A stretch of DNA of 64,000 nt from Nemertoderma westbladi (GCA_032718475.1 JAUCBJ010000417.1:1-64000); one strand, 5' to 3'. Positions 12,349 through 59,063 are shown, numbered from the stretch's first letter. A program made the numbers and translations. Notes: generated by a model not told the origin, from the sequence alone.

Positions 12349-13544
12349 TGTAAAAGCTTTTGTGGGATAACTGATTCATTTGCTTTGCTAACCAGTTCCC
12401 CCCAGTCGCTGAATACTCTAAAAAGGGATCTATAGGTAAAATAGTGCAAGCTACCAGCTTATTGGCTGATGGGCTGTACGAGAGTATCTGGGTTCTGTTC
12501 GATCGGCCAACCAGCTTAGGGAGGTTGCCTTAGCCCTGCTGTCCGTATCGGCCAATAGAATTTGAGTGGGCGTTGATTTTGACCTATCCCAGAGCTACTG
12601 AACTGAATTTTCCTATCTCACTGCTCATCCTCTGTGTTGGACGGGAGCTTCGGGGAATAAGGGTAGTTGGTATCCTCGTATAGTAAGGTAGTCATATGAT
12701 TTTATATAATTCTGTTGTTGTGTTCCCATTTTTCGCCATAACACCGGCTTTTGGGAAGAACTCTAGTAAAACTGCTTAAATTATCGAAAGTATAAACTGT
12801 TATCAACCTAATCAATCAATCTTATCTGATCTAATTAACTCACTATTAATCATATTGTTTGTACTGTTATTTACCGTCAGTTATTAATTGTATCTATTTG
12901 TTGATGGAAATATTGCTCTTTGGAGAATACCGATAAATCACCCAAATTTCCCAATTTTCTTGATACACTACAGGTTAGAGAGACAGGCTATATATAACAA
13001 TTGCGATTTATATTAATGTGGTGTGTATTGAATCGAATGTTATTTAGCAGACCCTACATGAGTCAATTGCTGCTCTCTTTATGTGTGATCAAATTTACTG
13101 ACGGTCGGCAGAATAGTGTGCATGATTGTGATTGGTAACAAAGCATTTCCTAAAGAATGCGCCTTATACTTTAATCATAAGCAGTATCGTTGCGTTTAGT
13201 ATAAGTCCTAGTTCTGTTTAAATAGATAAAGCGCCACGTCCTAAAGGAACTGTTAATATTTCCCGAAAGCCAATAATATCTGTCAGAAATTAATTATTAG
13301 TGATCAATCGAATAATACAGTAGATTTACACTGCAACCTTACACTGCAATAATAAAATTTAAGCAGCCGAATTCAGCCTCCCGGGTGTAGATCCATCGGG
13401 TGAATGATCGCGCATGGGCTGACTTCGGGTAATGTTTTGTTTATTAGCATAAAATATTGTCGTATGCTAAAGGTGTTTTAATTAACTAAAAGACATATAA
13501 ATTTTGGCAGGTTAAACTGCTAAAGGTCTTCAAAAGCGCGAACA
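12349..13544 (+). repeat. 5' LTR of element 1
   Basis: TGTAAAAGC...GCGCGAACA, direct repeat of 23392-24587. Confidence 0.97.
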
Positions 13545-13555
13545 ATAACAGTTTA
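13545..13555 (+). promoter_or_regulatory. Non-tRNA primer-binding site candidate (self-complementary to LTR 12793-12803)
   Basis: ATAACAGTTTA directly after the LTR CA is the exact reverse complement of TAAACTGTTAT in the LTR. No TGG-type tRNA PBS nearby. Confidence 0.75.
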
Positions 13556-15735
13556 CGATCTTATTGCAGTAGGCAATAAGGTTGCAAAATACCGTAGTGA
13601 CCGGTAAACCTGAACCGGTACTTCTGTAGGTCAGTAGGCCTAACTGTCATCACCGGTACCGGTACTGCTGTACAAGTACATTTAGTATTATTCGATTTTG
13701 ATTATTGTATACCGGTAGGTCTTGGTACTTAATCAGGGAACGGCCGCCCTGATTTTTATTTGAGATTCTACTTATTTCTGTCGGTTTTATTTACTAGTAG
13801 GCTAATATTGAGCAGAAGGCGTGTGACCCTGCTCAGATTGTTCAGATAATTGTAGGCTGAGCTGCTGTCTGACTGTTGTTGGGTTTGGAGAGATTACGGC
13901 GTGTGTAGAGTTTGTCTGATAAAGTGCCGTTAGTAAGTTGGGGCAGCCATATGCTGTAAGGTCAATCCCCTCTTAAAGAATAAGTCGTACTACCGTGTTA
14001 GAACGCATACTAACGAACTGTTTCAGAATCTGCATATACTGTAGTTTATTTAGGCTTGATCGTAGTCTGCCAGTGTTTTAGCCTGTGTTTGTTTGTGTGG
14101 TCTGTTCAGGTACCGTAATAGTTATTACTCAGATATTTTGTAGGCTGGATTGTTGTCTAGCTATTATTAGGTCTGAAGAGATTGCTGTGTGTGTGGAGTT
14201 TGTCTGATAAAGTGCGGTTAGTAAGTTGGGGCAGCCATATGCTGTAAGGTCAATCCCCTCTTAAAGAATAAGTCGTACTACCGTGTTAGAATGCATACTA
14301 ACTAACCATTTCAGAATCTACACGTACGGTAGTTTATTTAGGCTTGGTGGTAGTCTGCCAGCATTTGGTTTGTATTTTGTTTGAGTATTCTGTACGGGTA
14401 GCGTAATATTTATTATTCAGAGTTTATGCGATTATTCGCAACATTCATGTCCCCAAGTTTATTCCTACAGTAATTGTGCTTGTTATACATACCGTTATAG
14501 TTAAATTAACCCCGGTACTACACGGGCTGCTTGGCGTAGGACAAGACTGGTGACTTTGTGCTTCGGTCACTCCAGCAGATGCCGTGGTTCTTTTAACTGT
14601 TCAAGTATATTTAACTACTGATTATTTGTTATACCGGTACTTGTACCTAATTTAGGGTTTAGTGTACAGTGCTTTCCGAAGTAATTAGTGTGTAGGCAGT
14701 ATATTTGTGTTGTAAAGTGGTTGATAGGCACATTCGTTAGCTCTATTAACTTCTAGGTAGGAACACTCCGTGATACATAACGTAGTACCTATAGCGATAC
14801 GGTTATAGGTCGTCAGGCGGTGGTATTTTCCTATCTGGACAGTACAGTATATTTACTACTACTTATTATTTCAAATACCGTAGTACCCTGTCCATTGTAA
14901 TAACCAGAATTCTAACCCTTTGTTAGGCTGGTTTGTAGACTTCCTGTAAAATTACCCTAAAAATTCGTACGTAATATTTTTGTTGTGTTTAATTAGAGAA
15001 TTAATCTCACCCATATCGTAAGTAATTTGTAGTATTAAGTAACTTAGGTAAATTAGAATTATCAGTTTTAGTGTCAAATAAATAGCACTTCACTGAGAGC
15101 GCACAGCTTCTGTGTAGTGACCCCCCAGAAATAATAACATTTATTTCAAATATTGATAAAAAACCCTTTTTAAACGGGTATATAAATATTATAAATCAAC
15201 TCAAACGATTTATAAATAGTAGGCCTGCCATACAACAACTAGGTCTCAATATCAGTTGGACTACTGCTTAAATAACGGTAATAAAGTAAGTTAAAGTAAC
15301 CAAGTAACCTTAAAATATTCAGAAATTCAATTATTCTAAAAATAATTGACATACCGGTACTTACCATAGGCTTATCCTATTTATTTCTATAAATTCGAGC
15401 TGAAATCATACCGGTATTCTGTAATTAATTCTAGTTCATAATTATACTTATATATACTATAAGTGTCAGCTGTATACCGGTATTCACGATAGGCCTATTA
15501 TATATTTATATATATTTGTGCTAAAATTATATACCGGTACTCTGTGACAAATCTAGTCTGTAATAATACTTATATATATATTATAAGCATACCGGTATTC
15601 TAATATATTGTATATATATCACGTTACACTGAGTAACGGTATCGGTAATAAATTACTAGGCCAGCGGTCATACTGAATTACTAGACTTGCTTTAACTGAA
15701 ACTATAGTAGTAGACATTCAACTGTATAGCTAAAC

Positions 15736-18700
15736 ATGTCTGACACTCAGCAAAACCTGTCAGACAGTCTGATCGATACAACTATCTGTGACTCAGATAG
15801 GAGTATGGAGCGATTAAGAAAGGAGTTCAGCTCACCTCCTACTGCAAAAAAGGTCATCCCTCCAGTAGTATCAGACCCTAGGCTAATCCACCATAGGTCC
15901 ATCATAGGCACTCGGGCACAGGTCAAACGGAACCAAGAGGCAGTTGTCCCATCGCAGCAACATCTTGGTCAAGAACCTACTTCCCAGCGACCCGATAGCT
16001 CCAGCAGTTCGGATACTGTAGAGCTGACCCCCGAACGCGGAGTGCAGATGGCTGTTACAGTCTACTCGGACCCCCTTCTTACCCTGCCTGCTGCAGTGCT
16101 AACTACTATATTCATTGCGGTGGAGGAACATCAAGCCGACTGGGCGAGGAATAAGCGAGCGACCCAAGATAATTATGCGGGATACGCCAGGGAAGAATTA
16201 ATGTCTATTGTCGAGTTACAATGGAACTTTCCCGGACTCGGACTCCCGTTGGACCTGTCCGAGGCTACTTGGGAAGATATACACAGGATGGGAGTGGCAA
16301 AAGATACAATGGATCCAGCTGTTTGGAAGAGGTCGGCATCAGGATATGTGCAGGGATTCTTCGGCTCCTTGGAGCGATTGGAAGAACAACTGTTTCGACA
16401 ACCTCAAGGACCTCAAGAGCAGGAAGAGCTGCTATACCAAGTACGCGAAAGAACCCTACGCATTCGACTAATCCTCTCAGCCTTTGAGGAAACTTCCAAA
16501 AGAAGACAGGACACGTCGCTGCAGGTTGCTGTCAAAACTTGGTTACATCGGGTAGATCTCAAAGTACAGGAAACGGCCCCGTGGAAATCCCAGCTGGCTG
16601 AGAGATCAACCTATGAAGAACCAACTGATGTCACCCTTTCTCAAGCGGAAAGCGAAGAGACCGCCGAGAAACCGCGAACTAGAGACGCTATCGACATTTA
16701 TTTGTCCGACTATCAGCGATTCCTAGGAGACGAAGAGTTGAGGAGACGGCTGTCTGGACTTTCCCCTAATAGTGAAGGAACCAAGCTTGTGTTGGACTTA
16801 AACGATGCCGAAATGTTAGCTGCAAACCAAGCTGAATGTGATGAAAAACTCCGCCTCACTAGAGTCCGAGAAGAACAAATAAAGAAAAGAAGGATAGAGG
16901 AACAAAAGGCGGCGGCTATGGCAGAAGCAGAAGTAGAAAGAAAGGCAGCGGCGGCAGATGCAGAAGCAGAAAGAAAAGCAGCAAAGGCAGTGGCAGAAGC
17001 AGAACGGAGAGCCTCTGAGCAGACTACCCAACTGGAGTTGGAAAATCTGCAAGAGACACAAGACAGTATAAATAAACAGTTTACTGCTAATCAAATGCAG
17101 ATGATGAGAAAATCTACTCCCAAGCGCCAGGGATACACATCCTCGGAGGAAGGCGAGACTACCGATCCTGAAGGCGGAGGAAATAGATCTCATCTAAGTA
17201 GGCGTAGAAAAACATCTTACCGTCGCAAATTGCCTGATTTGCCACCAGCTGTTAGAAGACAGCTAGCTAGCACAGACTTGAGTAGTATAGAACCTACAGC
17301 CCAAAGTATTAAGGTCCAAAGACTCTCTACAATAGTTGATGAGCCTGAGATAATTAGGCCTGTCGTTCCCAAAGTCACTTCTGTGTTAGAGACCCCTGTA
17401 CTTCCAGAGCTTAACTCTAAATTCCCTTTACATAGTACTACACTGCCTGTACCCGGTGGAGCAGTCCAAGGGAATATCCCTGTCAAGATAGCAGAGAGAG
17501 AAATCAAAAATTTGTCTCCCGTCGTCCCGCGTCAGCCCGCTATTATGTTAGCGACTCCCGCTTCGGCGGTTGAGTGGGTGGAAGAGGGACGGCGGGGGAT
17601 GAATCTCCTAATAGGACAAATGCAGGAGACTGTCCACCAACTTAAGGGAACAGTGAGAGAAGGTAGAGCAGAGTTGCAAGAAGTGCAGCAAAGTATTGCA
17701 CTAGAACGCGATAAATTAGTCAATATACAAAGGGGCATACCAATACCCCCTGTAACATTGTGTCAACCTGTTAGGTCTGAAGTATTACATGCGCAAGGTG
17801 TGGAGCCTATACGCATCTATACTGCTAGTGAAGTTGAAACTCCTATAACAAACCCTATTAAGGGTGATTATAGACCTGTTATTAATGATATTCCCTATAG
17901 ACCTGATAATGATCCGAGAAATTTATATACCGATAATTCGATATTAAATAACACGATGGCCCAAGAAAGCTTTACGCGTCAGATGGCTAGAACAGAAGCC
18001 CGCCAAGCGGTCAAAGTGGGAGAGATCGTCAAATTCAATGGAGATGAGATGAAATGGTTACCTTTCAACGAATATTACAAAGATAGCATACAGAACTCTG
18101 TACTATCTAACGGAGAGAAACTTAGATTCCTCATCAAGTGCTTGGAAGGACCTCCCAAGTTAATGGCGTTAAAGTTTATTGGACATCCAGATGGGTTAAG
18201 ACAAGTTTGGGATACATTAAACATCAGGTATGGTAACAAGGATAACATAGCTAAGTATTTGTATGCAAAATTAGTAGCCCCTCGACACTTCCTTAGTAGC
18301 GGGATTATAGAGTTTTCCGATGAAATTCAAGAGATCTGTAGACAACTGGACTGGTTAGGTAAGTCGCATGAATATCAGAGTTCCATGGTCATTGGAGCCG
18401 TAGTCTCTACTTTACCAAAGGGTGGAGTATGTACGCGCTGGGACAAGAAAGTGTTGTACATGAATGAACAACAACGACGAAGTCCTACCATGGCTGATCT
18501 CATGTCCTTCTTAGATAGTGAAGTAAAATTACAACTCATAAGGCAGTCCAGAGAGAAAACATCGGAAAATAAGGTAAGTGAGAAACCCGTTTCTAGGAGA
18601 AGGATAATACCAGTGTGTTACACTGACGACGGCGAGAGCCAAGCTTCTCAAGAAGAGGACAGCGGGAAAGACACAGCAAAATCTTACTATGACAACAAGA

Positions 18701-20337
18701 CCTATAAAGACGTAAGTAAATACAAGTCTCGAATCAGTGACAGGAAAGAACAGGTAACAACAACTCCTCCTACGTCTCCTAAGAGAATTCACGGAAGAAA
18801 GCCCGAAGAAAGAACGAGAATGCATAACGTTACCCAAGGTAAGGTGAGTAACATCAAACCAAAATGTGCGCTGTGCGACGGGCCCCACCGTTTGAGTGCG
18901 TGTGCTGAATTTCTAAAGAAATCCCCTGTAGACAGACGTACAGTCCTGTGGAATAAGCGGTTATGCTATAATTGCCTCAGATCAGGACACCAACGGCGAA
19001 CCTGTTACTCCGACGTAAAGTGTGCAAAGTGTGGCGCGAAACATCACATCTTGTTACACAGTGAGTTCGAACGAGACAACCCGAGTCAGGTAAGTGAGCC
19101 CGAACTACATGTCCAATTCAGTGATGTGAACGACACTGACCAAGGTTCTGAGTGGGAAGGATTCTATACAGACGAATTCTCCGATGCCAACGAATCCTGT
19201 TATCTAATAAATACCACAGGATGGATGAAAAGGATGCCTTCACGCTTTTCACGCGCTTTTCACGCTTTTCACCTTACGGATGAAAAGGACACTGACGAGT
19301 TTACTCCAACTCCTTTTGACAAACAACCATCTTGGAAAGTTCCAACTTCCAACATAGGAATAAGAGAATTTCCTGTAGTGCAAGTTCGAGTTCATGGTCT
19401 CAATAAGAGTTACATAGTGAACGCCCTACTTGACTCCGGCAGCACAGGAACATTCATCGATCAAGAACTAGCCGAAGATATCTTTGCTGGACAACCCAAG
19501 TTCCGGACTAAATTGAATATGTCAGGAATTATGCAGGTTTGGAAATCTACCCTAACGGCAGATTACTATGTAGGTGTGTTGTCCACCCCCCAGGATAAGT
19601 TAGGAACACAAGGTATAAGGTCAGTAAAAATGGTGGCTATAAAGAACTTTGCTACTACTCAAGCAGACCTTTATAATTGGGACGAAGATGAGAGCATCCA
19701 ACATCTTAAGATACCTCGATTCCAGACAGATTATCCTGGAGTGCAAATACTCATCGGCCAAAACGCGCACGAGGCGCTCGAAACATTAGAGAAACGGCCT
19801 GCTCAACCACAGCCATTACAAACTTATGCGGTAAGAACTAGAGTAGGTTGGTACTTCACTGGCCCTTCCCGTAGAACTCTCAAAGAGAGATTACCTCAAC
19901 AACAGGTATACCAAGTAAAGGAATGGGAAGTGGAGAGCAGTGATGTGGACGATCCAACTGAGGGAACACCATACTCCTCAGATAATGACGATATTAACTC
20001 CAATGTAGATCAATGGAGACATTGCCTTGGGACGATTAATCCAGCCGACATCGCTTCCAGAGGAGCAACTCCTCAAGAACTGATGGATACTCCAGGCTGG
20101 TTAGGTGGATCCGACTCCTTAAGTAAAGAAGAAGAAGAATGGCCTCCTCATCTTACCACGGCAGAAATTAGACAGGCCAAGGGAGCGGAGAAAGTAACAC
20201 AACAACTCAATCGCCCAGCTAGTCGTTTATGTTTACTGGAAAGAGACCGAAAACTGTCCGAAAACTATGGAAGGCAAGATACTCTTCCTACGACTACTTC
20301 CCTAATCCGACAAATATCTAGGGACTCCATAACGTGA
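15736..20337 (+). CDS. BEL/Pao Gag-protease polyprotein with RT and integrase core deleted in frame
   Basis: Pao gag core (KFNGDEMKWLPF...LSNGEKLRFLIKCL), three zinc knuckles (CALCDGPHRLSAC, CYNCLRSGHQRRTC, CAKCGAKHHILLH), protease ALLDSGS, AVRTRVGWYFTGP, then directly the RNase H tail QWRH...NPADIASRG...W..G......WP and an integrase-tail-like RPASRLCLLE. No YxDD and no DDE. Confidence 0.9.
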   Translation: MSDTQQNLSDSLIDTTICDSDRSMERLRKEFSSPPTAKKVIPPVVSDPRLIHHRSIIGTRAQVKRNQEAVVPSQQHLGQEPTSQRPDSSSSSDTVELTPERGVQMAVTVYSDPLLTLPAAVLTTIFIAVEEHQADWARNKRATQDNYAGYAREELMSIVELQWNFPGLGLPLDLSEATWEDIHRMGVAKDTMDPAVWKRSASGYVQGFFGSLERLEEQLFRQPQGPQEQEELLYQVRERTLRIRLILSAFEETSKRRQDTSLQVAVKTWLHRVDLKVQETAPWKSQLAERSTYEEPTDVTLSQAESEETAEKPRTRDAIDIYLSDYQRFLGDEELRRRLSGLSPNSEGTKLVLDLNDAEMLAANQAECDEKLRLTRVREEQIKKRRIEEQKAAAMAEAEVERKAAAADAEAERKAAKAVAEAERRASEQTTQLELENLQETQDSINKQFTANQMQMMRKSTPKRQGYTSSEEGETTDPEGGGNRSHLSRRRKTSYRRKLPDLPPAVRRQLASTDLSSIEPTAQSIKVQRLSTIVDEPEIIRPVVPKVTSVLETPVLPELNSKFPLHSTTLPVPGGAVQGNIPVKIAEREIKNLSPVVPRQPAIMLATPASAVEWVEEGRRGMNLLIGQMQETVHQLKGTVREGRAELQEVQQSIALERDKLVNIQRGIPIPPVTLCQPVRSEVLHAQGVEPIRIYTASEVETPITNPIKGDYRPVINDIPYRPDNDPRNLYTDNSILNNTMAQESFTRQMARTEARQAVKVGEIVKFNGDEMKWLPFNEYYKDSIQNSVLSNGEKLRFLIKCLEGPPKLMALKFIGHPDGLRQVWDTLNIRYGNKDNIAKYLYAKLVAPRHFLSSGIIEFSDEIQEICRQLDWLGKSHEYQSSMVIGAVVSTLPKGGVCTRWDKKVLYMNEQQRRSPTMADLMSFLDSEVKLQLIRQSREKTSENKVSEKPVSRRRIIPVCYTDDGESQASQEEDSGKDTAKSYYDNKTYKDVSKYKSRISDRKEQVTTTPPTSPKRIHGRKPEERTRMHNVTQGKVSNIKPKCALCDGPHRLSACAEFLKKSPVDRRTVLWNKRLCYNCLRSGHQRRTCYSDVKCAKCGAKHHILLHSEFERDNPSQVSEPELHVQFSDVNDTDQGSEWEGFYTDEFSDANESCYLINTTGWMKRMPSRFSRAFHAFHLTDEKDTDEFTPTPFDKQPSWKVPTSNIGIREFPVVQVRVHGLNKSYIVNALLDSGSTGTFIDQELAEDIFAGQPKFRTKLNMSGIMQVWKSTLTADYYVGVLSTPQDKLGTQGIRSVKMVAIKNFATTQADLYNWDEDESIQHLKIPRFQTDYPGVQILIGQNAHEALETLEKRPAQPQPLQTYAVRTRVGWYFTGPSRRTLKERLPQQQVYQVKEWEVESSDVDDPTEGTPYSSDNDDINSNVDQWRHCLGTINPADIASRGATPQELMDTPGWLGGSDSLSKEEEEWPPHLTTAEIRQAKGAEKVTQQLNRPASRLCLLERDRKLSENYGRQDTLPTTTSLIRQISRDSIT

Positions 20338-21863
20338 TAGCATGTGGAGTGGGCGTGTGACTATATCATTTTATATTTGTTTTCATTTTATATTTATGTA
20401 TGTATTATTATGTAATTTTATTATAATCGTTTTCTTTAATTTTATTTAGTAGAATGTTATTTTAGAATATTTACTGTCCGTATTATATTATAAATGCGAG
20501 ACTATAGTAAGATGACATGTCAGTACTTCTTAAAGTACAATAAAGCCACTACTATATTTAAGTATTATTGGTAGGCAGAGTATTAGGAATGCAAAGTTCA
20601 GATCCTCGTGTCTCGGCTAAACCAAGCTCTGGGTAGACCTTGGAAACGACTTGCCTCTTCACACTGACATTGCTTCGTGCGATATTGCTCTTCTACCTTA
20701 TAACAAATAATACATATAGTAGCGTGATGTCCCTCTAACAGTAGCGTAAATCGCAAATAAATCTGTTAAACTTTTTGACCATCTGTAATTCTAGTCGATT
20801 AAGATATCGTGGCACCCACCGATATACTTGAAAGACAAATTCTAGAATCAGTGGTTAACGTCCCCAGACAAGTTCTGGAATAAATCGGTGCTCATCCTAA
20901 ATATTAATTTAATATTTATTAAAATCTGTAAAATCCCGATCCTTTAAAATTTCTAGTCAATTAAGATATCGCCGTATTTACCGATATTCTTAGAAGGACT
21001 ATTTTATAGAATCAAGGATCCTAAGTCCCCAGATATGCTCTGGAATAAAATTTGTGTCAATTTAACATCAAATAATAAAATTCACGGGAATAAATTTAAA
21101 TTCATATTCAAATGAATTTCATAAATTGTCATTTTTGTGCAATTTATAACATTCCCAAAATTCCAGTAATTAATAGATCATGGGAGCGGAGATTCATATT
21201 GAGTGTACTAGAGTGCGAGAATCTCCAACATATAGTCAATAGCCGATAAAATTTATAAAATCATGCATAAAGAGGATATTGACAATTAAAGAATTACTAT
21301 TAAATAGCATCCCAGATCTGTATGCATGAGAATTACCCTAATTCTACCGCTAGTTTTCCATAATGTCACCATGGCAACACCCACGCTAGAATTAGAAGCA
21401 AGTTAAAGGAACAGTAAAAAGCTTGCCCCATTGCGTAGCATAAGAGTATACATAGCGCACTATTAGTATCCAAGGATACATAGTAATAACGTGACATTCT
21501 GGAAGACACTGACTAACGGACAAATGGCATGCATGTGTGCAGTAAGTAATGATTGTATGGAATTTGTGCGTTTATAGGTGAATGTTACTACTAAAGTGTG
21601 TTTACAGTAGCTAATCGCAATTGTAAAATAGCCCTAACTCTACCGAGATAACCTCAAGTGGATTCAAACCTTTGGGACGGACAGTGGTGGGACTTGTGCC
21701 GGTTATAGTTGTCGTGCTGTTGCTACATGTTGGCGTAAACACCGCGACAACGGTACATCGGCGCTGAGAAACCCACTGTCCGGGGGCAAAGCCTAGTAGG
21801 CAGCGACGCCCGCTTGCCTAAAATATTAACTCATATTGATATTAATAAACTCAGATAGCAGAT

Positions 21864-23313
21864 ATGACGGAATTGATAGAACATGACCTTGGTATCAGGG
21901 AGCGATATACTCTACCTTTACAAGCGTTTGTGGATAGCTTGATACGCGGTGAAGACGATCCGACTATTACGGAGGACGATGGTCGTTATATCGAACCGCC
22001 GATGTCCCAGGAACAACTTACGCGTGAATTGGACTATAGAAAATTCACCGCTCCCTATACGAATCGTAATGGTACGTATATGGACTTCTTAACTACCGGC
22101 CATCCTACCGATTTACATGATACGGACGATGTATACACCGAAAGGGAAATGGTTCTATTTAAATATCATACCCAGCAGAGTCGTAACGATAAACCGAGAA
22201 TAGATCACGAAAATTATATTCGTAACAGACTGGGAAGACGAACCCATATGTTTAGAATCTGAAGAGATTCAGCCCCCCACGTCTCGGAGTAGCGATAGCG
22301 ACTACATATGGGAATGGTATCAAGGTCCACAGTGTCTCACTGCGTACGATTATCGCCATGCCAACTATGTTTCTCGGCAACGTTGTCGGTTATGCGCATC
22401 GAGAGACCATATTACGTCTATGGACACCAACGATCTCTGTTCCTATTTCCACGAGCAACCGTCGATGGAAATCTATTGTGCATATTGTCGGCTTAATAAT
22501 TTGCACATTTTTGCTGTCTGCCCCCAATTTATGACTCAATGCCATCATTGTCAATTAAAAGGACACGCCAGCTTTGATTGTCCCTTTAATCATGATTTAG
22601 AGAGCGTAGATGAAATGATTGTACTACGTTATATCAGAGCTTGGGAAGCGAACGCTGATTTACATTGTGATTCACGCCATCGCTATTACCCTGGACGCGC
22701 TTACGAAGGAGATTATGCGTTCCATCCTTATTTATTCGCTTCTGTCGAACAGAAATCACGCATATCAAGTTATGAACTACTGAAGCGCGTTGGAGAATGT
22801 ATTTCAACCAAATATGTACGCAAATTTCTCAGGAGCATTAATCCGAGTGACATCTATTCTTACAACTTAATAAACTTTATCCGTCAAGACCCTGCCTATG
22901 GAGACTTATTTGTCAACTCACACCCCGAGTTACAGGAAGTATATCGACGGCCTTACGAGTACCGAGCCCGCGAACGCGAGTTGGAAAGAACCATTAAACC
23001 AAGGAAGTTTCTAACTGCCTATGGTCCACCCTCGGCCCTCGTTCAGACCACTCGTAAAGGACCCGTAAGAGCGGCTGCCTTGAAACGAGCTCTCAAAGCC
23101 GTTAGACCCCTCTCCCCGGACGTTGATGTCAATCAACCCGGTACTTAGACCGGCGGATATACCGATCGTAATCCCATACCTTCTGATGCAATCATATTGC
23201 ACCCTTCACCCAGGAGTTATAGCCCTCCTCGTAAAGTGGCTCGCCCCAAAGAGAAAAGGACTCTTGCTAGCTTTAAAAAACTGCGTAAACGCCGTCCGCG
23301 CAAGAAAGACTAA
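21864..23313 (+). pseudogene. Internally deleted copy of the element's extra ORF2
   Basis: N- and C-terminal parts match 53597-57851. About 2.8 kb is deleted near 22232 at a GAAGAC microhomology, causing a frameshift. TAG at 23146-23148 corresponds to TCG in element 2. Retains CxxC..H..C knuckles and a basic tail. Confidence 0.85.
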
Positions 23314-23391
23314 CTGTTTAGAGTATTTTTATATTTTAGAAACTGTGATTTTGTATATTTTATAGACTTAAATCCCATTTTCTGGGAGCGG

Positions 23392-24587: not shown

Positions 24588-24592
24588 GATTC

Positions 24593-29871: not shown

Positions 29872-30193
29872 CTAAAAATTAACAGTGAAATAATAATAAT
29901 ATTCGTATTAAATGTCGATTTTATGAATCTTATATTAATAAATGTGTAGGCTATGGACGAGTTTACATATACTTGTCATTATTGTCAATATTTCATGCGC
30001 TGTTTTTTTCTGAGAAAGTTACTAAATATATAAATACTATCCACTGGTTAATAATATCGAAATATGAGCCTTCTAACGACCAATCAACCTGTCCCCTCTA
30101 CCTCATCAGTGCAACAAAGCTTACTGATTACGGTGATAACAATAAACGTAATTACAAAACTAAATATAAACTTCTTAGTTCGACATAACTTAC

Positions 30194-38564: not shown

Positions 38565-38738
38565 TTAATACGTTTCTGATTGGTCAGACTATTATCTATG
38601 TTTTTTGTGCATGTGTCCAGTCCACCTTTTTTCAAACATACATATTATTCCCAATTATGTAACTAAGAAAGCGAAAACTTGAAAAAGGTGGACAGACCAA
38701 TTGCTACAAACTGCTTTACATAATACGTTTCTGATTGG

Positions 38739-39901: not shown

Positions 39902-39912
39902 TTAATAGTTTT
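39902..39912 (+). promoter_or_regulatory. Non-tRNA primer-binding site candidate (self-complementary to LTR 39088-39098)
   Basis: TTAATAGTTTT directly after the LTR CA is the exact reverse complement of AAAACTATTAA in the LTR. Confidence 0.75.
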
Positions 39913-47338: not shown

Positions 47339-47661
47339 GTAGAATTATCTGTATTAGTGTTTAACAAGTAGCACTCCACTGAGAGCGTTCAGCTTCTGTG
47401 TAGTGACTCCTTATCCAGAAATAATAACATTTATTTCAAATATTGTCAAAACCCATTGTACGGGTATATATATATATATTTATAAATCAAATCAAACAGA
47501 TTTATAAAATAGTAGGCCTGTCATACATCAATTAGGTCTTAACATCAGTTGAACTACTGCTTAATATCAGTAATAAAGTAAAGGGAAGTAAACCTAAAAT
47601 TCAGAAATTCAGTTATTATTAAATAATTGACATTACCGGTATTTACGGTAAGCTTATTATA

Positions 47662-50600
47662 CTACTACTAGGTCGAGCGAACTCGGACAGTGGAAATGAG
47701 ATCCTTCCAGGCTTCCCGATTCTGCATAGTTGTCGCAATTTCGTTTCTCCCAAGTTCAGTATCCCTTTCAAGTTGATCTATATATGTTATGGCAGGTCGT
47801 CCACGACTACGCTTTCCATGAGTTGGTTGCCAGAGAAGTAGATCTGGTATGACCTCGTCTTTACTTCGCCAGCAGTGCCCACTGAATCTTAATCTGCGTT
47901 CACGGAGGGTGGTTGATACAGGTGGTATTGTACCATAAAGCTCGGCGTTTGTCATGTGTTGTCTCCAGCTGATGTTTAGGGCTGCCCTTAGTAGTCTTGT
48001 GTAGCAACCATCAATTCGTTGTTCAAGTGATTTAGTCAGTGTCCAGGTCTCACCCCCGTATAAAAATACACTTTCCACTGTGGCTCGAAAGAACTTAGTC
48101 TTCAGGTGCCTGGAGAGATATGATTTCCAGATGGTATCCATTTTTGATAGAGCTACCCAAGCCTTTGCTTTCCTAACTTCTATGTCCTTTTTGCTACTCT
48201 CTATCCATGATCCAAGGTACTGGTAGTCATCGACCTGCCTTAGTTGATTATTATCAATGGTTGTCAAGTTTCCATCAACATTAAAGGTCATGAATTCGGT
48301 CTTGGTAGCATTTATATGCAATCCAACCTCCTTAGCAGCCCTCTCCACTTTATTTAGTAGAAGCTGTGCATCTGCTAGCGTATTAGAGAGCAGGGCGATG
48401 TAATCCAAAGTCGGTGTCTGTGACTGTAGTTGCCGGATATCTACTACTTCTGCGTTCTTGAAGTGTGAATCCCAGATCTTCACCCTTTGTGGCCGTCCTC
48501 ATTGCGTAATCCAGCACAATTACAAATAGTAATGGTGCTAATGTGTCACCTTGCAGTATGCCAGCCAGGATTGAGAAAAACTCAGTTTCACCATCTGGTG
48601 AGAGTACCTGCGCTTCTGTGTCACAATATAGCAATCCAATGCCAGCAACAATTACTTCTGGTATTCCATAAGCTCTTAGGATTTCAAGCATTTTACCTCT
48701 ATGGATGGAGTCGAATGCCTTCTTGAAGTCCACAAAAGTCATGACTGCGGGGAGATTCTTTGACTTAATTCCTTCAATCAGTCTCCGTAGTGCAAGTATC
48801 TGAGCTATTGTTGATCTACTTGGTCGAAATCCGTTTTGGCTCTTACGCAGTAGTTTCTCTATGTGAGGCCTAATCCTATATAGAATCATTTTATTGTATA
48901 TTTTGGCAGCTACCACAAGCAGACAGATCCCATGATAGTTTGTTGGTATGCCGAGGTCTCCTTTCTTGGGGAGAGGCTTTAGTTGACCTTTAGTCCAAAT
49001 TGGTGGTGGCTTTTCCCCTTTTAACATCCGGTTGCAAACATTCAATAATTGTCTATTTAGCACTCCGGTTTTCCATACCTCCGCTGGGATTTCATCTAAT
49101 CCACTCGCTTTATTATTGGACATGCTTTTAATGCTTCTTTGGAGTTCGGCAGGTGTGAAGTCCCCTGTTTCTGTAGGTAGTGTCTTGTCATATATTTTCC
49201 TTGTAGGGTTGACCTCGATGTTGGGTGGCTGCCCAAGCAAGTTGCTGAAGTGATTTTTCCACTTCCCAACACGTTCTTCAGGACTATCGGCTTTGAGGCG
49301 CCCCTTTGCACAACTTTTCCGACCAGATACCTCATTTACAGTTTGCCAGGTAAGTCTTGATTGCTGCTGTATGTGAGCAGTTGTAATTGCTTCAGTTTTA
49401 TCCTGTATGTACTTTTCCTGGCTGATGTTGTAGGCCAATTTAAGATCGTCCTTAGCTTTCTCAACCTTGTTAATGTTTTCGGTTGTTGGTTGTTCGGTTT
49501 TAACTTTGTAGGCTATCTTAAGATCTTCTCTCTTACAAGTAACCTCAGAGTTTTGCCATGGCACATACTGTTTTCGTTTAGGTTTCTGGGGGATATGCCT
49601 CTTAGCTGATTCCTTGTGGGCTGTTATTATATTCTGGTATATTGAATCGGTGGATTGGTCTTCATCCATTGACTGAAGTGCTTCAAAGCGGTTTTGAACT
49701 TCTACTGTATAAGCATCCTTTACAGCATTGTCAGTTCTGAGTTTCTCCCAGTCATAGTTGATTTGCTTGCTTGTCCTGGGTTTGCTGGCTCTCAAACTGA
49801 GTCTGATCTCTGCAGTCACAATTCTGTGGTCCGAACCAATTAGGTTGAACGAGCTGTATGCCTCGCAGTTGATCATGCTATTTCTCCACTTTTTGTTTAT
49901 AAGGATGTAATCCAGTTGTGCTTTGGTTCCATTAGGGTATTGAAAGGTCCATAGCTTCCCCTTACTCTTTTCGAATGTGTTGTTTGTTGGTATCAATTCA
50001 CATTCTTCCATTAGGTCTAAGAGTAAGTACCCATTTCTGTTAGAACTGGTGTTATAGGTGTAACCCTTGATGTCTTCTGGGCCAATTTGCGCATTCAGGT
50101 CACCAGCAATGACTTTAACATTGTGTTTCGGGATGTCCTTAATAAGTCCAGTCAGTTCTTCATAAAACTTGACTGCTTGTTCTGGCTCTGATGCATTGGT
50201 TGGACTGTAGCAACATATAACTGTTGTCTTGGGATTCCCATCAAAAGTTGCGATCATAACCCTGGTATTTATAGATTCGATGTTGTTTAGGGTCTTAAGT
50301 GCAAATGGGCTTAGCAGAATTCCTACACCACCAATTGATGCATTGGCCGAGTTTCTTACTGCTGAGCTTGTTACTAACGTCCATCCATTTCCAATGTCAT
50401 TGTACTTCATGGCAGTGTCTTCATGACAAATCCGATGTTCTTGGATGCAGATGATGTCGATGTTATATTCCATCGCCAGAGCAAACATGTCACCCTGTTT
50501 GCTCTGTGCTTTCAGCGTGCATGCGTTCATTGTAGCAATCTTTAGTGTCTTTTTACATTTCAACAGGTTGGTTCTTCTTTCTTCTCTGTCTTCTGTTCCA

Positions 50601-51242
50601 GTAGCCAATTTATCGACCCCAGCCTGGTGTACCACTGAGGGACGCGGTCCTTGTTGTCCCGGGCGACGACCGAGCCGGTATTTCTCCTGGAGGGTTCTCA
50701 TACTCATATCTTTCAGTTGCGGGGGTAAACCGCTTGTGGTCGCAACTCCTACAAGCGTCTTTGCGGTAGGTCGCTGTTGGTTGATTACCTTCCGCCGACC
50801 TTGTCAGCATGTCTAGCCATTGGTTGATTACCTTCCGCCTATCCATGGCCTACAGCCCTGCTGCCGACTGCAGGGGTCCTTTGTTACACCTTGAACCAAG
50901 TGTGCCTCCTGGGTTAGGTTACCTAACACTGGTAGAGGAGCATCCAGTATAGACAGGGCGGGGCTTGTATCATCTCTAATGCAGATGCGTATCAAGCCTT
51001 TGCCTTCAATGGTGCCCTAGGCGCTATAGCCCTCAATGACTTATTTAGTTGACGGGGCTGAACCAACCCACTCTTGATCAACTAAATAATGAATAGGCTA
51101 TGCTTATCGGGCCTGCCCTACTGGGCTGACAGCTACAGGTAGTACCACATTACTGCCATAGTGGTAGCAGGATCTGGGGACCTGACCTGACCGGATCTGA
51201 CCTGACCGGACCTGACCTGACCGGACCTGACCTGACCGGACC
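47662..51242 (-). mobile_element. Full-length RTE-like LINE family B
   Basis: 14-bp TSD GTAAGCTTATTATA (47648-47661 / 51243-51256), (TAG)n 3' tail, 5' end of GGTCC/GGTCA pentamer repeats, single APE-RT ORF. Confidence 0.93.
47668..50707 (-). pseudogene. LINE B APE-RT ORF, frameshifted at the RT catalytic motif
   Basis: IATMNACTL, CIQEHR, GDLNA, SDHRIV (APE); QNGFRP, FVDFKKAFDS, GILQGDTLAP (RT). The expected DFADDIALL is broken near 48404. C-terminus HGKRSRGRP...REAW. Confidence 0.9.
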
Positions 51243-51493: not shown

Positions 51494-52605
51494 ATGTCTG
51501 ACACAAAGCAAACACTGTCAGATAGTCTCCTAGAAAGAACAATCTGTGACCCAGATAAAAGTATCGAACATCTAAGACCAAAGTCCAAGTCCCCTCCTAC
51601 TGTAAGAAAGGTCATCCCTACAGTAGTAGTATCAGACCCTAGGCTAGTAAAGCACCATGGGTCTATTATAGGCACTAGGGCTCAAGTTAAGCTAGACCAA
51701 GAGACAGCTGTTAAACAGCAGCAGCACCCGAGCCGAGAACTTATTTCTCAACAGCAGAATAACTCTAGTAGTTCCGACACTGAAGAGTTAACGCCCGAGA
51801 TCGGAACAAGGATGGCAGAAGAGGTTTACCCAGATCCACTTCTAATTCTTCCGGGGCCGTACTCACTAGAGTATTGATCGCTGTGGAGGAACATCAAGCC
51901 GATTGGACGAGAAATAAGAGATCGACCAGGGACAGTTATGCGGGATACACGATGGAGGAACTAAGGTCTATTGTAGAGACGCAATGGTACTTCCTCGGAC
52001 TCCCGTTTAACTTATCGGAAGCTGCCTGGGAGGACTTATACAGAATGGGAATAGTAAGGGACACTAGAGATCCAGCTGTATGGAAGAGGTCAGCAGCAGG
52101 ATATGTCCAGGGATTCTTCAGCTCTTTGGAGCGATTAGAAGAACACCTATTTCAACAATGTCAAAGACCTCAAGAGCAGGGAGAGCTGCTTTATCAAGTG
52201 CGAGAACGAATCTTATGGATCAGATTAATCCTTTCAGCCTTTGAGGAAGCCTCGAAGAGAAGCCAAGACACGTCGTTGCAAGTAGCTGTAAAGACTTGGT
52301 TCCAACGAGTGAGTGTTAAGGCCCAGGGAACGACACAATGGAAAGTTCAGCTAACTGAGTGCATGACCCACGGAGAATCAACAGATGCCACCTTTTCTCA
52401 AGTGGAAGGCGAAGCGATATCCAAAAAACCTCAGAAGAAGAAGGATGCGATTGACATCTATCTGTCGGATTATCAACGATTTATAGGTGACAAAGAGCTA
52501 AGGAGACGGCTAGCTGGACTTCACCCCAATAGTGAGGTAGCCAAATTCGTGTTAGATTCTTTAGATGCGGAAATATTAGCTGCAGAGCAAATAATGTCCA
52601 TTTAA
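51494..52605 (+). pseudogene. Element 2 gag N-terminal remnant (frameshift; deletion removes the rest of gag and all of pol)
   Basis: Homologous to aa 1-365 of 15736-20337. At ~52595 it joins sequence equivalent to element 1 ~20725. Confidence 0.9.
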
Positions 52606-53596
52606 CAGTAGCGTTGAAACGTAAAATAAATCTGTTAAACCCTTTGACCATCTGAAATTCTAGTCGATTAAGATATCACGGCACCCACCGATATACTTGA
52701 AAGACAAAATTCTAGAATCAGTGGTTAACGTCCCCAGACATGTTCTGGAATAAATCGGTGCCCATCTTAAATATTTATAAAATCTGTTAAAACAAATGTT
52801 ACAATAGAGTAAATGCTGACAAATTAACTCTAGAAAATCTATAAATCAAAATCTGTTAAAATTTAGATCCTCTAAAATTCTAGTCGATTAAGATATCGTA
52901 GCACTTACCGATACTCTTAAAAAGACAAAATTTCTAGAATTAAGGATCCTAGTTCCCAGACATGTTCTGGAATAAAATTGTGTCTATTTAATATCAAATA
53001 ATAAAATTCACGGGAATAAATTTTAAATTCATATCCTCTCATGAATTTGATAAATTGTCATTTTATACAATTTATAACATTCCCAAAATTCCATTAATTA
53101 ATAGATCATGGGAGCGGAGATTCACCCTATTAAGTATATTAGTGTGCGAGAATCTCCAGTGTACAGTACATAGCCGATAAAATTCATAAAATCATGTATA
53201 AGGGGAACATAATAATAACGTGGCATTCTGGAAGGCACTTGACTAACGGACAAATGGCCTGAATGTGTACAAATTGTGACAGGAGTGTGGAATTTGTGTA
53301 TTTATAGGTGAATGCTACTACTAAAGTGTGTTTACAGTAGCGAGTCGCAGTTGTGAAAGTTACCCTGCCTCTGTAGCAAGAACCTCCAGTAAATCTAAGC
53401 CCTTGGGACAGACATTGGAGTGACTCGCGCTGGTTATTGTTGTCGTTGTGTAGCTACTATGTTGGCAAAAGGCACAGCGATGACAGTACATCAGCGCTGA
53501 GGATCTTGCGCTGTCCGGGGGCACTGAGGGGGAGGCAGCGACGACCGCTAGCCTAATCATTATTAATAATAATATTGATAAACTCATATAGCAGCT

Positions 53597-56500
53597 ATGA
53601 CTGAGTTAATAGAAGATGATCTTGGTATCAGGGAGCGATATACCCTACCATTGCAAGCGTTTGTTGATAGTTTAATAAGCGGCGACGCTAGTCAACTTAC
53701 TACGGAGGACGATGGCCGTTATATCGAACCGCCAATGTCAAAGGAACAGCTCACGCGTGAATTGGACTATAGAAAATTCACCGCTCGCTATACGCATCGT
53801 AATGGTACGTATATGGACTTCTTAACTACTGGTCATCCTATCGATTTACACGAAACGGACGATGTAGACACCGAAAGGGAAATGATCCTATTTAAATATC
53901 ATACCCAGTGGAGTCGGAATGATAAACTGAGAATCAAACATGAAAATTCTATTCGAAACCGACTCAAAAGAGAAGACGTTGAAGAGCCGGATAAACGCAG
54001 TGACTTCAACGAATATTTGGAATTCTTGAGAGAAACATATCTCAATGTGGCCAGTCAACAAAATCTAGAAACTCGATATCCTCAAGGTATACATCATAAC
54101 TCTATGATAGAACTCAAACGACTCTATTTCACTATGATGTATCTTACCGCCGATCGACCACTACCTGTTGTACCGGATAGCTTCGAACAGATGGAGGAAT
54201 ATTGTAAAACTGGAGAAAGATCACCCGCGTTTCCCCTACAAGACGTGCGTCTTTGGTATTATTGCGATGAATGCCCTAGACCCAACCAACAAACGGAAAG
54301 ACACAAACATCCGCTGATACGTTGCGCTAAACACAGTTTCACTCGCTATACTTACGGGAGTTTCGAGCGAAACTTGTTCGACGTATCACCCACACTCGCT
54401 CGACTCAAACGATCCTTAAATAAACCTATGATCAGAGTTCCGGAATACTCGGTCAGACCTCCGCATTCCCTGGTGAGACCTCAGACTCTTGATCCTAATA
54501 GTATGGCAGATCCTCCTGAACTGTACTCATTGTTCAAAGATCTAGTCTTACCCGAACAATTAGTCGGTGGCACTCCGGTTGTGGGCTCCCTAGATATATG
54601 CCCATCCTACCTAGCCGGATTGGGACGTGGACATCTAATATCGCCGTTCAACCCATATAAACGTCCCGGTTTAACCCCGATACAACCCATCACCGAGGTG
54701 GAAGAGAGCGTTGTACAAAACGCATTAGACGCTATTCGACAAAAGATCGGAAAAGGAACTTACGATTGTTTAGACAAACGTAAATTGCAACAGCAAGTCC
54801 AAGCGGTAAAAGAATTAGCTTTACCTCAGTTCGATTGGGAAATCCAGAATCTCGAAGAAGATATCGAACTTGGACGAACCTACTCTCTACAAGAGTTTTT
54901 AGACGAACGCTTCCAATGACAAGCGGAGGAAAATCAGCTCGAGGAGAAGCACATCGAAATGGACGAGAGAGAAGAAGCAGCTTTAGCCCAGCCAGAAGCT
55001 CAAATCCTTATGACTGATCTCTATTCCAAAACCATTATTTATCCTTCGATGGTTCCCCATTTCAGAGACAAACTCTTCGCCATGGTACAACCCCAACCAG
55101 TTGATATCAACTTAAGATCTAGAGATCTTATCGCTGACGCTCCTATGTTGCAAAGTCCGCCAATCGAGGCCGCTCGTGTCGACGGTATACTCGTTTAACC
55201 TCCGGACAAACGAGCGGATCTTGTCCGTGGTATGGTACACGAGGTCAACCTACGTGCTAGACCTTTACCGAACTCATTTTATGGAATCAAAGATCACCCC
55301 TATTATGTCAATTTAACTCAATATTATATGGTGAAACCGGAAGATCCTACACACAGTTTAAGGTTTCTACCACTGATAAACCCCCTAGATCTTGTTGAAC
55401 TCGAACAACTACAGAAACATCTAGATCAATTGGTCAAAGTAAACTCATTCAGAAAACCTTATAATGTTTCAAGAATAGAAAAGGATATAATGCCTCCGTA
55501 TAATCTCGATGGATTTATTAAAACTCGATTAGTCCATTGGAATCTCGATGTATTATTCGAGGAAGAGAGAATACAGCGATATGGAGATGCAGAGACTTAT
55601 ACTACACATTATCTGAAGTATAGCGTTCTACCTAACGCAAGCGAACGCGCCACCTTATGGCATCCGGTGGGTATGACCATAGAATACGCCACCAAAGAGT
55701 GGAACGAAACTCTTAACGTTATCGAAATGTATGGAGTTGTCACTTACGATAACAAAGGTAGCGTTCCGGTTGGAGAACTGGGAACTACGCAAATGATACA
55801 CATATGTAGACTAGCTGGTTCTACCCATGTGTTTACTCGAGCGTGTTCCGACGTGATCGATTATTCTTTTGAGACTCTCACCGAGATACAAAAGAAACTC
55901 TGACATGGACAATTCAAACTCGCGCAGCGTTATGTTACCGATACCGAGCGCAAACCGGCCATGGGTATAGATGGATCGATGCTACCCCAGCCAGTGCTCG
56001 AGATGCTGTTTGACGAGAGAATCCTTAAAATCGGCTCGGCTGTTTATGGAGATCTCCAAAATGACTTCAGAAACATGGAGAATATCCCATATCCTTTCGT
56101 AGACACCCAGCTGATTGCTCCATGGTCAGAAGGCCGAGGTTTCTTCCGAACTATGTATGCTAATACATCCAGCGGAATCAATAAAGTACAACTAACCTCT
56201 ATCGGACATCTTGCCTTCCAAGAATATGGATGGAATTTCAAGGTCGGAAACCCTGTCAGCTACCAACAAGTATATGGAGATCATTATTCTCGATTATACT
56301 TTGACGGACCATTAACCACACCTGGCGTCGTTTATAGCTTCATGAGTGTTACACTCCATCCCTCATTAGCTATATACACTATCTTCGAGAACGCCGCACT
56401 TGCCGGTTGGCTAGCCGATGTGTGCAGTCGCACTATACGAGCCCATCCCTTGTTACTTGGAACCAAACTCGCCAAGCTAGATGAACACAATAAATTCATC

Positions 56501-57851
56501 CGATTCGAATGCTTTAGGCGCTTTCTGACTCCGTTCCGTAACGTTGGTAGTCAGTTCAAGGACCGCGCTCTGACCCAGCTCAGCTTAAGAGACTCAGCTG
56601 CTGAGAAGTTGGACAGCCCTGGATTCGCCATTTTTAAGGACATTTGTATACAGAACTTACATTCATCTGTCATACAAAGACCCCGAATCCCCACAGGTTA
56701 TTCTATCGTGGAAGTTGAAACAGTGGGTTTGCTTGAGGAGACAGCTACACCTACCTCAGCTATGCAATTGGAAGACAAACCAATTTGCTTAGAATCCGAG
56801 GAGATTCAACCCACAGCGCCCAGGAGCAGTGACAATGACTACGTTCTGGAATGGTATCAAGGTCCACAATGTCTCACTGCATATTACTATCGGCATGCCA
56901 ATTATGTTTCTAGGAAACGTTGCCGATTATGCGCATCACGAGATCACTTCACCCCGGTGGACTCCAGCGTACCCTGCTCCTACTTTAAAGATCAACCTTC
57001 TATGGAGATTTATTGTATTGTATTGTATACTCAATAACCTACACATCTTCGCAGTCTGTCCTCAATTTATGACTCAATGTCATCATTGCCAGTTTAAAGG
57101 ACACGCAAGTTTCGATTGGCCTTTCAACCGAGATCTAGAAAGCGTAGACGAAATGGTTGCCCTGCGTTATATTCGAGCCTGGGAAGCTAACGCGGATCTC
57201 CATTGCGAATCACGTCATCAATACTACCCTGGACGTGCCTATGAAGGAGTCTATGCGTTTCACCCATATCTCTTTGCTTCTGTTGAGCAAAAATCTCACA
57301 CCCCTAGCTACGAGCTAATGAAGCGTGTTGGCGAGAATATTTCGACTAAATTTGTTTGCAAGTACCTTAGGAATATTAATCCTAACGACCTTAATTCCTA
57401 TAACTTGATCAACCTCATCCGTCAAGATCCGGAATATGGTGACTTGTTCATAAACTCGCATCCAGAGCTACAAGAAGTTCAGAGACAACCCTATGAATAT
57501 AGAGCCCGAGAACGCGAGTTGGAAAGAACCATCAAACTGAGGCAATTTCTCACTACTCACGGTCCACCTACCGCTCTCGTGCAAACGACTCGTCAGGGAC
57601 CAGTAAGAGCTGCTGTCCTGAAACGCGCTCTAAAGGTTGTTCGACCTCGTTCCACTGAGGTTGATATCGATCAACCGGGTACCTCGACCGGCGGATACAC
57701 CGACCGTCATCCTAAACCTTCGGATGCAATCGTATTGCACCCATCACCCAGGTGTTATAGCCCTTCTAGTAAAGTGGCTCACCCCAAAGAGAAAAGGACT
57801 CTTACTAGCCTTAAAAAACTTTGTAAACGCCGTTCACGAAAGAAGGACTAA
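53597..57851 (+). pseudogene. Extra ORF2 of the BEL/Pao family (~1,417 aa reconstructed): degenerate DEDDy exonuclease-like domain + zinc knuckles + basic tail
   Basis: Track ORFs 53597, 54959, 55232 and 55961 are all in one frame separated by single stops (TGA, TAA, TGA). One +1 frameshift near 57020 relative to element 1. Confidence 0.85.
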
Positions 57852-57929
57852 TAGTTTAGAGTATTTTTGTATTTTATAAACTGTGATTTTTTATATTTTA
57901 TAGACTTAAATCCCATTTTCTGGGAGTGG

Positions 57930-59063
57930 TTTAAAAGCTTTTGCGGACATAACAAGTCATTTTTACGCAATGCGCAGAATACTCTAAAATAGCCCTAAAT
58001 TTATCCAACTACGCGACGGGAAGGAATTAGAACCAAGATGACGAAATCTGTCAGCTGATTCTTTGTGGACGTGGAGGTTCTTTGTTCTGCCTTATTCAGC
58101 CAATCAGAGCGATTTTCACTTTATGTCTAACAGAAACCTATGGAAACTCGCGCAATGCATTATGGTCTTTGTTTACTATTTTCTGAGCATCAGAGCCAGC
58201 TCGGATTTTTCTGTGCTTCTGTGTGGAAGTTTTAGACTTTGGCCTAGGAACATCAGATGGCCTTGATTATAAGAACGTAAAACTATTAACCTGGATACAC
58301 CCTGGATCACTGGATACACTCTGAATCACTTACCTGATCATACTCAACTCACCTGACTGCCTGACTTTCATACTCAATAAGTAACACATGCTGACTGTTC
58401 ACCGCATTATTTTACTTCTGTGTGGAGGTCTTTTATTAATTGTTGTTATATTAATGGATATTGCTGTTATATTTGGAGAATACGGATAAATAATCATAAA
58501 CCCCTCAATCTTCTTGATTACTGAGGTAAGGGGAACATGTTTACCGGTAGAAACTGCGACTTAAATTAAAGTGGTTTTTGTGTGAATTAAATGCTATTTC
58601 ATAATCCCTACGTGTGTCAGTTGCGATCCTCCTTATATATGATAAAATTCAATGACGGTCGACAGATTAGTGCAAATTAGTGTGAAGTAGTGTGAAGTCG
58701 TGTGAAGTAGTGTGAAGGTTAATAAAGCATCTCCTAAAGAATGCGCTATTTACGAAACTCTGTGGCCATCTAGTTGTGATTAGTATAAGTCATAACTCTG
58801 CTTTTATACTTAAAGCGCTTAAATACTTTGTCAGAGATTATATAGTAGCGATCAATCGAATAATACAGTAGGTCTACACTGCAATAACTCTCAAGGAATC
58901 CGAATCCAGTCTCCCACACCGTGGGTCATACGCCGCGCACGCACTGGCTTCGGCTGATGTAACTTCAGTACACTAGGTAATTGATATAGGCTAAATTCGA
59001 TTTATAAACAAGAAGACAACTAAAATTGGCAGGTTAAACTGCTAAGGTCTAAAAGCGCGAACA
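57930..59063 (+). repeat. 3' LTR of element 2
   Basis: Preceded by GGGAGTGG; starts TT (TG mutated); ends GCGAACA followed by GATTGG. Confidence 0.95.

Follow-up and report, generated by a model that had tools for sequence, protein, structure and literature searches.

Self-complementary primer binding sites and a likely exonuclease-like accessory gene in a BEL/Pao-lineage retrotransposon family of Nemertoderma westbladi

How would a long terminal repeat (LTR) retrotransposon begin reverse transcription if its own LTR holds the complement of its primer binding site (PBS), and does a nuclease-like accessory protein encoded by the same element take part? This question is raised by two elements, E1 (12349-24587) and E2 (38739-59063), in a sequence from Nemertoderma westbladi (GCA_032718475.1 JAUCBJ010000417.1:1-64000). 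The window is this whole stretch of 64,000 nucleotides, positions are counted from its first letter, and features lie on the + strand unless marked otherwise. An initial annotation had placed two diverged LTR elements at these coordinates, which is borne out, and had proposed an integrated system in which the primer end is made either by cleavage guided by a structured LTR RNA or by trimming with the product of open reading frame 2 (ORF2), an exonuclease-like protein with zinc knuckles. The potential for self-priming and an ORF2 that combines an exonuclease-like domain with knuckles both survive analysis, while the structured RNA is not supported at the place claimed for it. The account that we somewhat favor is that the family self-primes in the manner of Tf1, with the primer likely released by the RNase H of the reverse transcriptase (RT), and that ORF2 serves a separate accessory role.

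The self-complementary PBS is present in both elements. In E1 a candidate self-primer 11-mer at 12793-12803 (second copy at 23836-23846 in the 3′ LTR) is complementary to the PBS at 13545-13555, and in E2 the corresponding 11-mer at 39088-39098 (second copy at 58279-58289) is complementary to the PBS at 39902-39912. Each PBS is flush with the LTR end and forms 11/11 Watson-Crick pairs, and in both elements the pairing ends at exactly 11. A perfect complement in the respective LTR is found for only 41 (E1) and 36 (E2) of the 57,989 11-mers in the window. The E1 and E2 11-mers differ at 3/11 positions, all three of which are compensated on the PBS side. As they share 8 letters the two 11-mers are not fully independent, and the stronger evidence is therefore these three coupled changes. 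A primer assembled by splicing was considered and ruled out, since each of the four LTRs carries the 11-mer uninterrupted in its DNA and no intron is required. A second LTR site that can pair with the PBS lies at 13247-13255 (9 bp including one G-U) and at 39632-39640 in the E2 5′ LTR, where its letters are identical, with no compensation. It falls within a highly conserved LTR block, is deleted from the E2 3′ LTR and is a possible switch or competitor.

This arrangement has a precedent in Tf1, where the first 11 bases pair with the PBS, RNA structure is involved and the RNase H cut falls between bases 11 and 12 (PMC7175516, PMC4600332; these and the other papers below, apart from PMC8742986, are cited from excerpts of their text). 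Like Tf1, Tf2, Tj1 and the Tf1/sushi group of Ty3/gypsy elements, E1 and E2 have a PBS complementary to an 11-nt LTR segment and no tRNA site, and like Tf1 they have predicted structure near the PBS. Unlike the Tf1 group, they have a gag and homologs of the BEL/Pao type, a loop of ~740-800 nt between the pairing partners and a large accessory ORF2, and their RNA start and primer cutting are inferred. Tcn1 and the Copia TAR, Houba and Osr-1 groups are further self-primed comparators. The Belpaoviridae (Semotivirus), as described by the International Committee on Taxonomy of Viruses, use an 18-nt PBS for tRNA-Arg or tRNA-Gly and may have an env-like third gene (PMC8742986). The PBSs of E1 and E2, which do not start with TGG, are not of this kind.

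In several other respects the elements resemble the Belpaoviridae profile. They share with it the TG...CA LTRs, a target duplication, a DUF1759 gag with three knuckles, homologs carrying PF05380 and PF18701, and putative remnants in the order protease, RNase H, integrase; they depart from it in the self-complementary PBS and in the nuclease-like character of the extra gene. E1 is a young, internally deleted element within a copy of a long interspersed nuclear element (LINE). Its LTRs (12349-13544 and 23392-24587) are 1196 bp, start with TG and end with CA, and have 2 differences between them, and the target duplication is GATTC (5 bp). E1 ORF1 (15736-20337) encodes a gag that carries three CCHC-type knuckles, followed by protease, and a deletion has joined these to putative C-terminal ends of RNase H and integrase; in a Pfam search this long frame gave a DUF1759/PF03564 match (E 8e-12), knuckles and protease. 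From its motifs, we take its end to be the last residues of RNase H followed by integrase. The order of protease, RNase H end and integrase end would be compatible with the BEL/Pao order, and the RT is deleted in both E1 and E2. PF05380 (Pao family) occurs in 12/13 homologs of the E1 gag-protease part, and homologs also carry PF18701.

E2 is an older copy of a diverged subfamily that has received several nested insertions and lost pol. Its LTRs (38739-39901 and 57930-59063) are 92% alike, the target duplication is GATTGG (6 bp) and a frameshifted 5′ remnant of gag remains at 51497-52590. Each 3′ LTR is preceded by an 8-nt purine-rich tract with one pyrimidine, to be compared with the ~10-nt polypurine tract expected of BEL/Pao elements. 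The synonymous divergence (dS) between E1 and E2 is 0.5 to >1 across the coding parts, and on this measure the two split long ago. Judged from these features, E1 and E2 are defective copies of one BEL/Pao-lineage retrotransposon family, as a variant rather than a textbook member, and both rely on helpers because neither has an RT. They are not Ty3/gypsy chromoviruses, as gag and homologs are BEL-type, and only their working would be Tf1-like. Both target duplications (12344-12348 and 38733-38738) begin with GATT, in two cases only.

The predicted pairing depends on where the RNA is taken to begin. In E1 the duplex between 11-mer and PBS is predicted with p 0.96 if the RNA begins at the 11-mer, 0.05 if it begins at −20 and 0 at −60, and in E2 the corresponding values are 0.66, 0.85 and 0. 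Upstream of the 11-mer E1 and E2 do not align, as would be expected of the unique 3′ region (U3) of the LTR. From this alignment break and the duplex predictions, we infer that the 5′ end of the RNA would lie at or near the 11-mer. TATA-like words occur just upstream, at −2 in E1 and −11 in E2, and thus at non-equivalent places, and initiator-like TCA repeats follow downstream of the 11-mer. The LTRs are AT-rich and such words are common in them, with 5 TATAA in the E1 LTR and 3 in that of E2.

The long covarying RNA that had been described directly 3′ of the 11-mer is not supported by either consensus-fold or helix-retention tests, with z about 0 and with 1/8 helices kept against 33% of decoys. 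What follows the 11-mer is a G-poor, hypervariable linker (12804-12870) without conserved structure, which in E1 has 1 G in 50 nt and is unalignable between the elements. In sequencing run X1 the summed contig depth, which is not equal to copy number, goes from 387,667 to 35,824 at the linker and then to 812,167. Across 12881-13350 the two-sequence consensus fold gave z between −0.2 and +0.4. For 12881-13140, 45/100 shuffles were equally good, and the double-sided changes number 4 where the mean is 5.4. For 13140-13350, 64/100 shuffles were equally good. One of the eight stable E1 helices in 12840-13140 was kept in either E2 LTR, compared to 110/337 and 118/337 decoys. Two early 150-column windows over the linker had shown a surplus of double-sided pairs (1/40 shuffles each), and are discounted because only 40-53% of their columns are identical and the energies are weak. 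In E1 and in both E2 LTRs, 12863-12881 can be paired by hand with 13097-13111 as a closing helix, post hoc and without compensation.

Conserved structure is predicted elsewhere: 13350-13600 scores z −5.8 to −6.5, 14140-14400 scores z −5.2 and the ORF2 leader reaches z −8 to −10. In 12/12 coding control windows, z stayed between −2.1 and +1.1. The LTR part of the first region, 13350-13544, scores z −6.5, with 0/100 shuffles as good and 6 double-sided changes (reached by 2/100 shuffles); its reverse strand likewise scores (z −4.2). On a strict helix test of this part, only 2/7 helices are fully kept versus 26/175 decoys, so that support for structure in this unique 5′ (U5) region is modest. The candidates here are a U5 stem of 5+7 bp with 2 double-sided changes and an inner hairpin, conserved between E1 (13367-13428) and E2 (39737-39790), a U5 terminal hairpin whose 7-bp stem is identical in E1 and the E2 5′ LTR (13504-13523), and a hairpin directly 3′ of the PBS (13556-13584), predicted with p 0.99 in both elements. 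When the repeat (R) and U5 were folded as a whole, E1 scored z −2.25 and E2 scored +0.14. Rfam returned no family at the LTR, at the leader or window-wide, where three matches were at chance level, and no hammerhead core word was found on either strand. Tf1 also needs structure near its PBS, and the structure in E1 and E2 is thus no pointer to a new mechanism.

The strongest conserved fold lies outside the LTR, just upstream of the ORF2 start, where a long irregular hairpin (~55 bp) is accompanied by a small hairpin (21672-21818; in E2 from 53403). It is strand-specific (reverse strand z −0.5) and has no Rfam match, and candidate roles for these predicted hairpins are a translation element, an export or packaging signal, or a small-RNA precursor. 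Several further observations concern RNA structure. In both elements, duplicated units of ~130 nt after pol (20760-21050; E2 52628-52976) fold into predicted long hairpins, with z −3 to −4.7 and no double-sided changes. GCGC words at 13159, 13231, 13410 and 13536 are kept in both LTRs, where about 1 would be expected, and the one in the U5-stem loop is a possible dimerisation palindrome. The 2.2-kb leader of E1 contains a 288-nt tandem duplication (13842-14421), a segment that is itself structured (z −5.2, strand-specific).

ORF2 had been described as having both an exonuclease-like fold and zinc knuckles in each element. The knuckles are indeed in both, and the exonuclease-like stretch is in E2 only, as E1 is without the part that matches E2 53972-56770. 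Hence the three features do not co-occur in both copies, and do so only in part at the level of the family. The E1 ORF2 remnant (21864-23148) retains ~123 N-terminal codons and the knuckle and C-terminal part (knuckles at 22477-22581, and one Cys/His unit upstream); its middle is deleted at ~22232 with a change of frame, and a premature stop occurs at 23146. E2 ORF2 (53597-57851) extends over ~1,400 codons, in which three stops, with their ends at 54919, 55198 and 55903, and a frameshift near 57020 interrupt the frame. It comprises a likely DEDDy/RNase D-like exonuclease domain (55700-56420) and a zinc-knuckle region (56900-57130). Between E1 and E2 the ratio of nonsynonymous to synonymous divergence (dN/dS) is 0.17 at the N-terminus, and at the C-terminus dN is 0.09-0.11 with saturated dS, so that ORF2 is, by this measure, under purifying selection and was a working gene. 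An identical 22-nt word ending in CAG (21586-21607; 53316-53337) lies upstream of ORF2 and resembles a branch point with a splice acceptor, which suggests that ORF2 may be expressed from a spliced subgenomic RNA.

Weak but consistent evidence on the fold makes a DEDDy/RNase D-like exonuclease the likely identity of the domain. The RNase D profile TIGR01388 matches it with E 0.0055 and 16 bits, against a curated cut-off of 299. Pfam gave no match for the E2 pieces of the domain, and no exonuclease match of significance came from sequence searches of Pfam, PHROGs and PDB. A word-based search with the ORF2 middle retrieved none among longer proteins and, with alignment, only one protein, P0015, which was also the single ORF2-domain homolog in a HMMER search of 1.84 billion representatives (E 1e-4, 29% identity). 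P0015 (ENA, 648 aa), encoded on a 9.4-kb contig, is an unnamed singleton with the same layout as ORF2, an exonuclease-like domain and three knuckles. Its acidic residues have DEDD-like spacing (D62, E64, D130, Y229-x3-E233), where the ExoI position was placed by eye on the basis of spacing; ExoII and ExoIII can be aligned between P0015 and E2, and in both the fourth ligand is apparently Glu and not Asp. PF01612 matches P0015 with E 0.2, below curated cut-off strength. In a feature search, offered as a lead only, its top cluster was PF01612 plus zf-CCHC from Euglenozoa (score 0.86), the 10/10 best family-bearing matches fell in the family or clan of the best match and the top three listed were PF01612. 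P0015 also has a non-significant match (E 0.63), again a lead only, to PDB chain 7c42, which we take to be TbRND. Two structure predictions had mean confidence (pLDDT) values of 30 and 29, and among loci sought as related to P0015, none of 16 and 182 pattern matches was confirmed.

These comparisons bring two known groups of nuclease into view. TbRND, a Trypanosoma RNase D with a zinc-finger domain, trims RNA 3′ tails (PMC7797062). Like P0015 it has an exonuclease domain followed by CCHC knuckles, with ligands at 80/82/145/230, a spacing similar to that of the candidate positions 62/64/130/233 in P0015, and unlike ORF2 it is the product of a cellular gene, the sequence match being a lead only. 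In retroelements, rotifer Gypsy elements have gained DEDDy ORFs on more than one occasion and share them with Penelope-like elements, and a role in 3′-end processing or silencing has been suggested for them, with function hypothetical (PMC5408684, PMC6431247). ORF2 resembles the ORF3 of bdelloid Juno/Vesta and Athena/Terminon elements in being a likely accessory DEDDy-like exonuclease 3′ of pol (Rodriguez 2017, PMC5408684). It differs from them, as compared by description only, in its BEL/Pao host, in its ~1,400 codons with knuckles and in its apparent D-E-D-E residues versus the DEED described.

A dead ORF2 in every copy would have spoken against the integrated system, and as far as the sequencing contigs show this is not the situation. 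In the contigs of 4 runs, one of which may be the window's own sample, the nuclease stretch is covered in 30/30 bins and no indel is listed at a 40% threshold. The in-frame stop of E2 and one altered ligand position are private to that copy, as at least 99% of the depth reads otherwise in 4/4 runs. Hence an active enzyme is possible in the family, at whose level all four ligand positions seem intact. Of the 40 differences listed, out of 144, 22 fall at third codon positions. The family is many-copy, and its LTR patterns were found at 0 loci in viral and metagenome contigs. One run under a second species label has the LTR in 29/30 bins and the nuclease stretch at low depth, as separate contig signals.

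The favored account can then be set out as follows. Transcription would begin at or near the 11-mer, and the 5′ end of the RNA would loop over ~740-800 nt to the PBS, a pairing that is itself seen in the sequence. RNase H, supplied in trans by a helper for copies lacking pol, would cut after nucleotide 11, and the RT would extend the primer, with the U5 and post-PBS hairpins taking the role of the Tf1 priming structure. ORF2, expressed from an RNA of its own or a spliced one, would be a zinc-knuckle exonuclease of TbRND-like type, most likely acting on RNA 3′ ends outside priming, such as those of host small RNAs or element transcripts. A 3′-5′ exonuclease would be unable to act on the 5′ 11-mer in cis because the whole genome follows the 11-mer; it would depend on an earlier cut, on another, short RNA or on the 3′-LTR copy. 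Five points weigh against this account. The RT and most of RNase H, and with them the putative cutting enzyme, are absent from both copies. With its conservation, and with catalytic positions that seem intact at the family level, ORF2 must do something, which may include priming. The TATA-like words at −2 and −11 could put the start 3′ of the 11-mer. The second PBS-complementary site nearly equals the 11-mer in duplex energy (−9.8 vs −10.3 and −8.0 vs −8.1 kcal/mol), and the comparisons of PBS and LTR structure rest on only two independent LTR sequences.

The integrated system that had been proposed, in which a self-primer in place of a tRNA is finished at the duplex edge by the element's own exonuclease-plus-knuckle protein, is unlikely, and the same holds for the specific route by which ORF2 could finish the primer end of a self-priming element. 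A 3′ tail, left by imprecise cleavage in the linker or by a short RNA of the LTR alone that acts in trans, would be trimmed by the knuckle-assisted exonuclease to the edge of the 11-bp duplex. Such trimming would fit a conserved ORF2 with intact-looking ligand positions and a linker that is unstructured, G-poor and variable in length, and it has a parallel in the tail trimming by TbRND (PMC7797062) and in the 3′-end processing of element RNAs proposed for DEDDy ORFs by Rodriguez 2017 (PMC5408684). It requires, however, an additional unseen cut or transcript, Tf1 produces a primer of the same length without an accessory protein (PMC7175516), and DEDDy ORFs are found in retroelements of other classes (PMC5408684, PMC6431247). 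The absence of the exonuclease domain from E1 is neutral in this regard, because E1 needs help in trans anyway, and the co-occurrence of self-complementary PBS and ORF2 in one family is one data point.

It is also improbable that the pairing of 11-mer and PBS is regulatory, for translation, packaging or a dimer switch, and that a host RNA, for instance a tRNA fragment, is the true primer. The second PBS-complementary site does suggest alternative pairings, the RNA start is placed indirectly and half-tRNA priming occurs in Copia groups (PMC6317226). The PBS, however, lacks an initial TGG, the PBSs of E1 and E2 are unlike at 3/11 positions and track the LTR 11-mer rather than a fixed host RNA, and position and length agree with Tf1 (PMC7175516). 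Rather doubtful is a U3 location of the 11-mer, immediately upstream of where the RNA starts. Only its 3′-LTR copy would then be transcribed, and the primer would come from the 3′ part of the RNA, either through cleavage or through trimming that sets out from the poly(A) end. The TATA-like words and the initiator-like TCA repeats are what such a start would call for, and a 3′-5′ exonuclease would gain a natural entry point, but these words are common and non-equivalent, the duplex is predicted only with an RNA start near the 11-mer and trimming would destroy the R needed for strand transfer on that molecule. Cleavage after nucleotide 11 by the LTR RNA itself, as a ribozyme or as a guide for a host nuclease, is very improbable, as the conserved U5 stems and the hand-set closing helix are outweighed by the lack of a conserved or covarying fold beside the cut site and of any Rfam match or hammerhead core word.

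The remainder of the window offers some context. A 45-bp tandem array (643-5990; ~119 copies, 96% alike) has long open stretches in all three + frames. A SMUBP-2-type helicase and RPAP1 (8839-11013 and 26247-29975, both on the − strand) each occupy a single long stop-to-stop frame, which suggests an intron-poor host. A DDE_1/HTH_psq transposase lies between the elements (31477-33282, +), and within E2 there are an inserted endonuclease-RT LINE (47660-51240, −) and a 230-aa frame without a Pfam match (42845-43537, −).

In the literature searched, which did not extend to Repbase or most subscription journals, no description was found of self-priming in BEL/Pao, and the reports of DEDDy accessory ORFs in retroelements name rotifers only. 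In three BEL/Pao papers (PMC3118150, PMC6238403, PMC554778) a look-up of the terms 'PBS', 'tRNA' and 'self' gave no match. Self-priming is mentioned in the available text of PMC3601003 only for chromoviruses, DIRS and a hypothetical precursor of LTR elements, and in that of PMC6317226 it is reported for Gypsy and Copia groups, with no exonuclease named there. The compensated self-complementary PBS would make BEL/Pao the third LTR superfamily with self-priming, next to Gypsy and Copia, and the likely DEDDy accessory nuclease would extend such genes to BEL/Pao from rotifer Gypsy and Penelope-like elements. The integrated system, if true, would be a priming route that was not found described and would give a retrotransposon-borne DEDDy nuclease its first defined function. 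With its many copies, its conserved and apparently intact nuclease motifs and its presence under a second species label, the family is a good natural system for questions of what such nucleases do and whether they ever serve in primer maturation.

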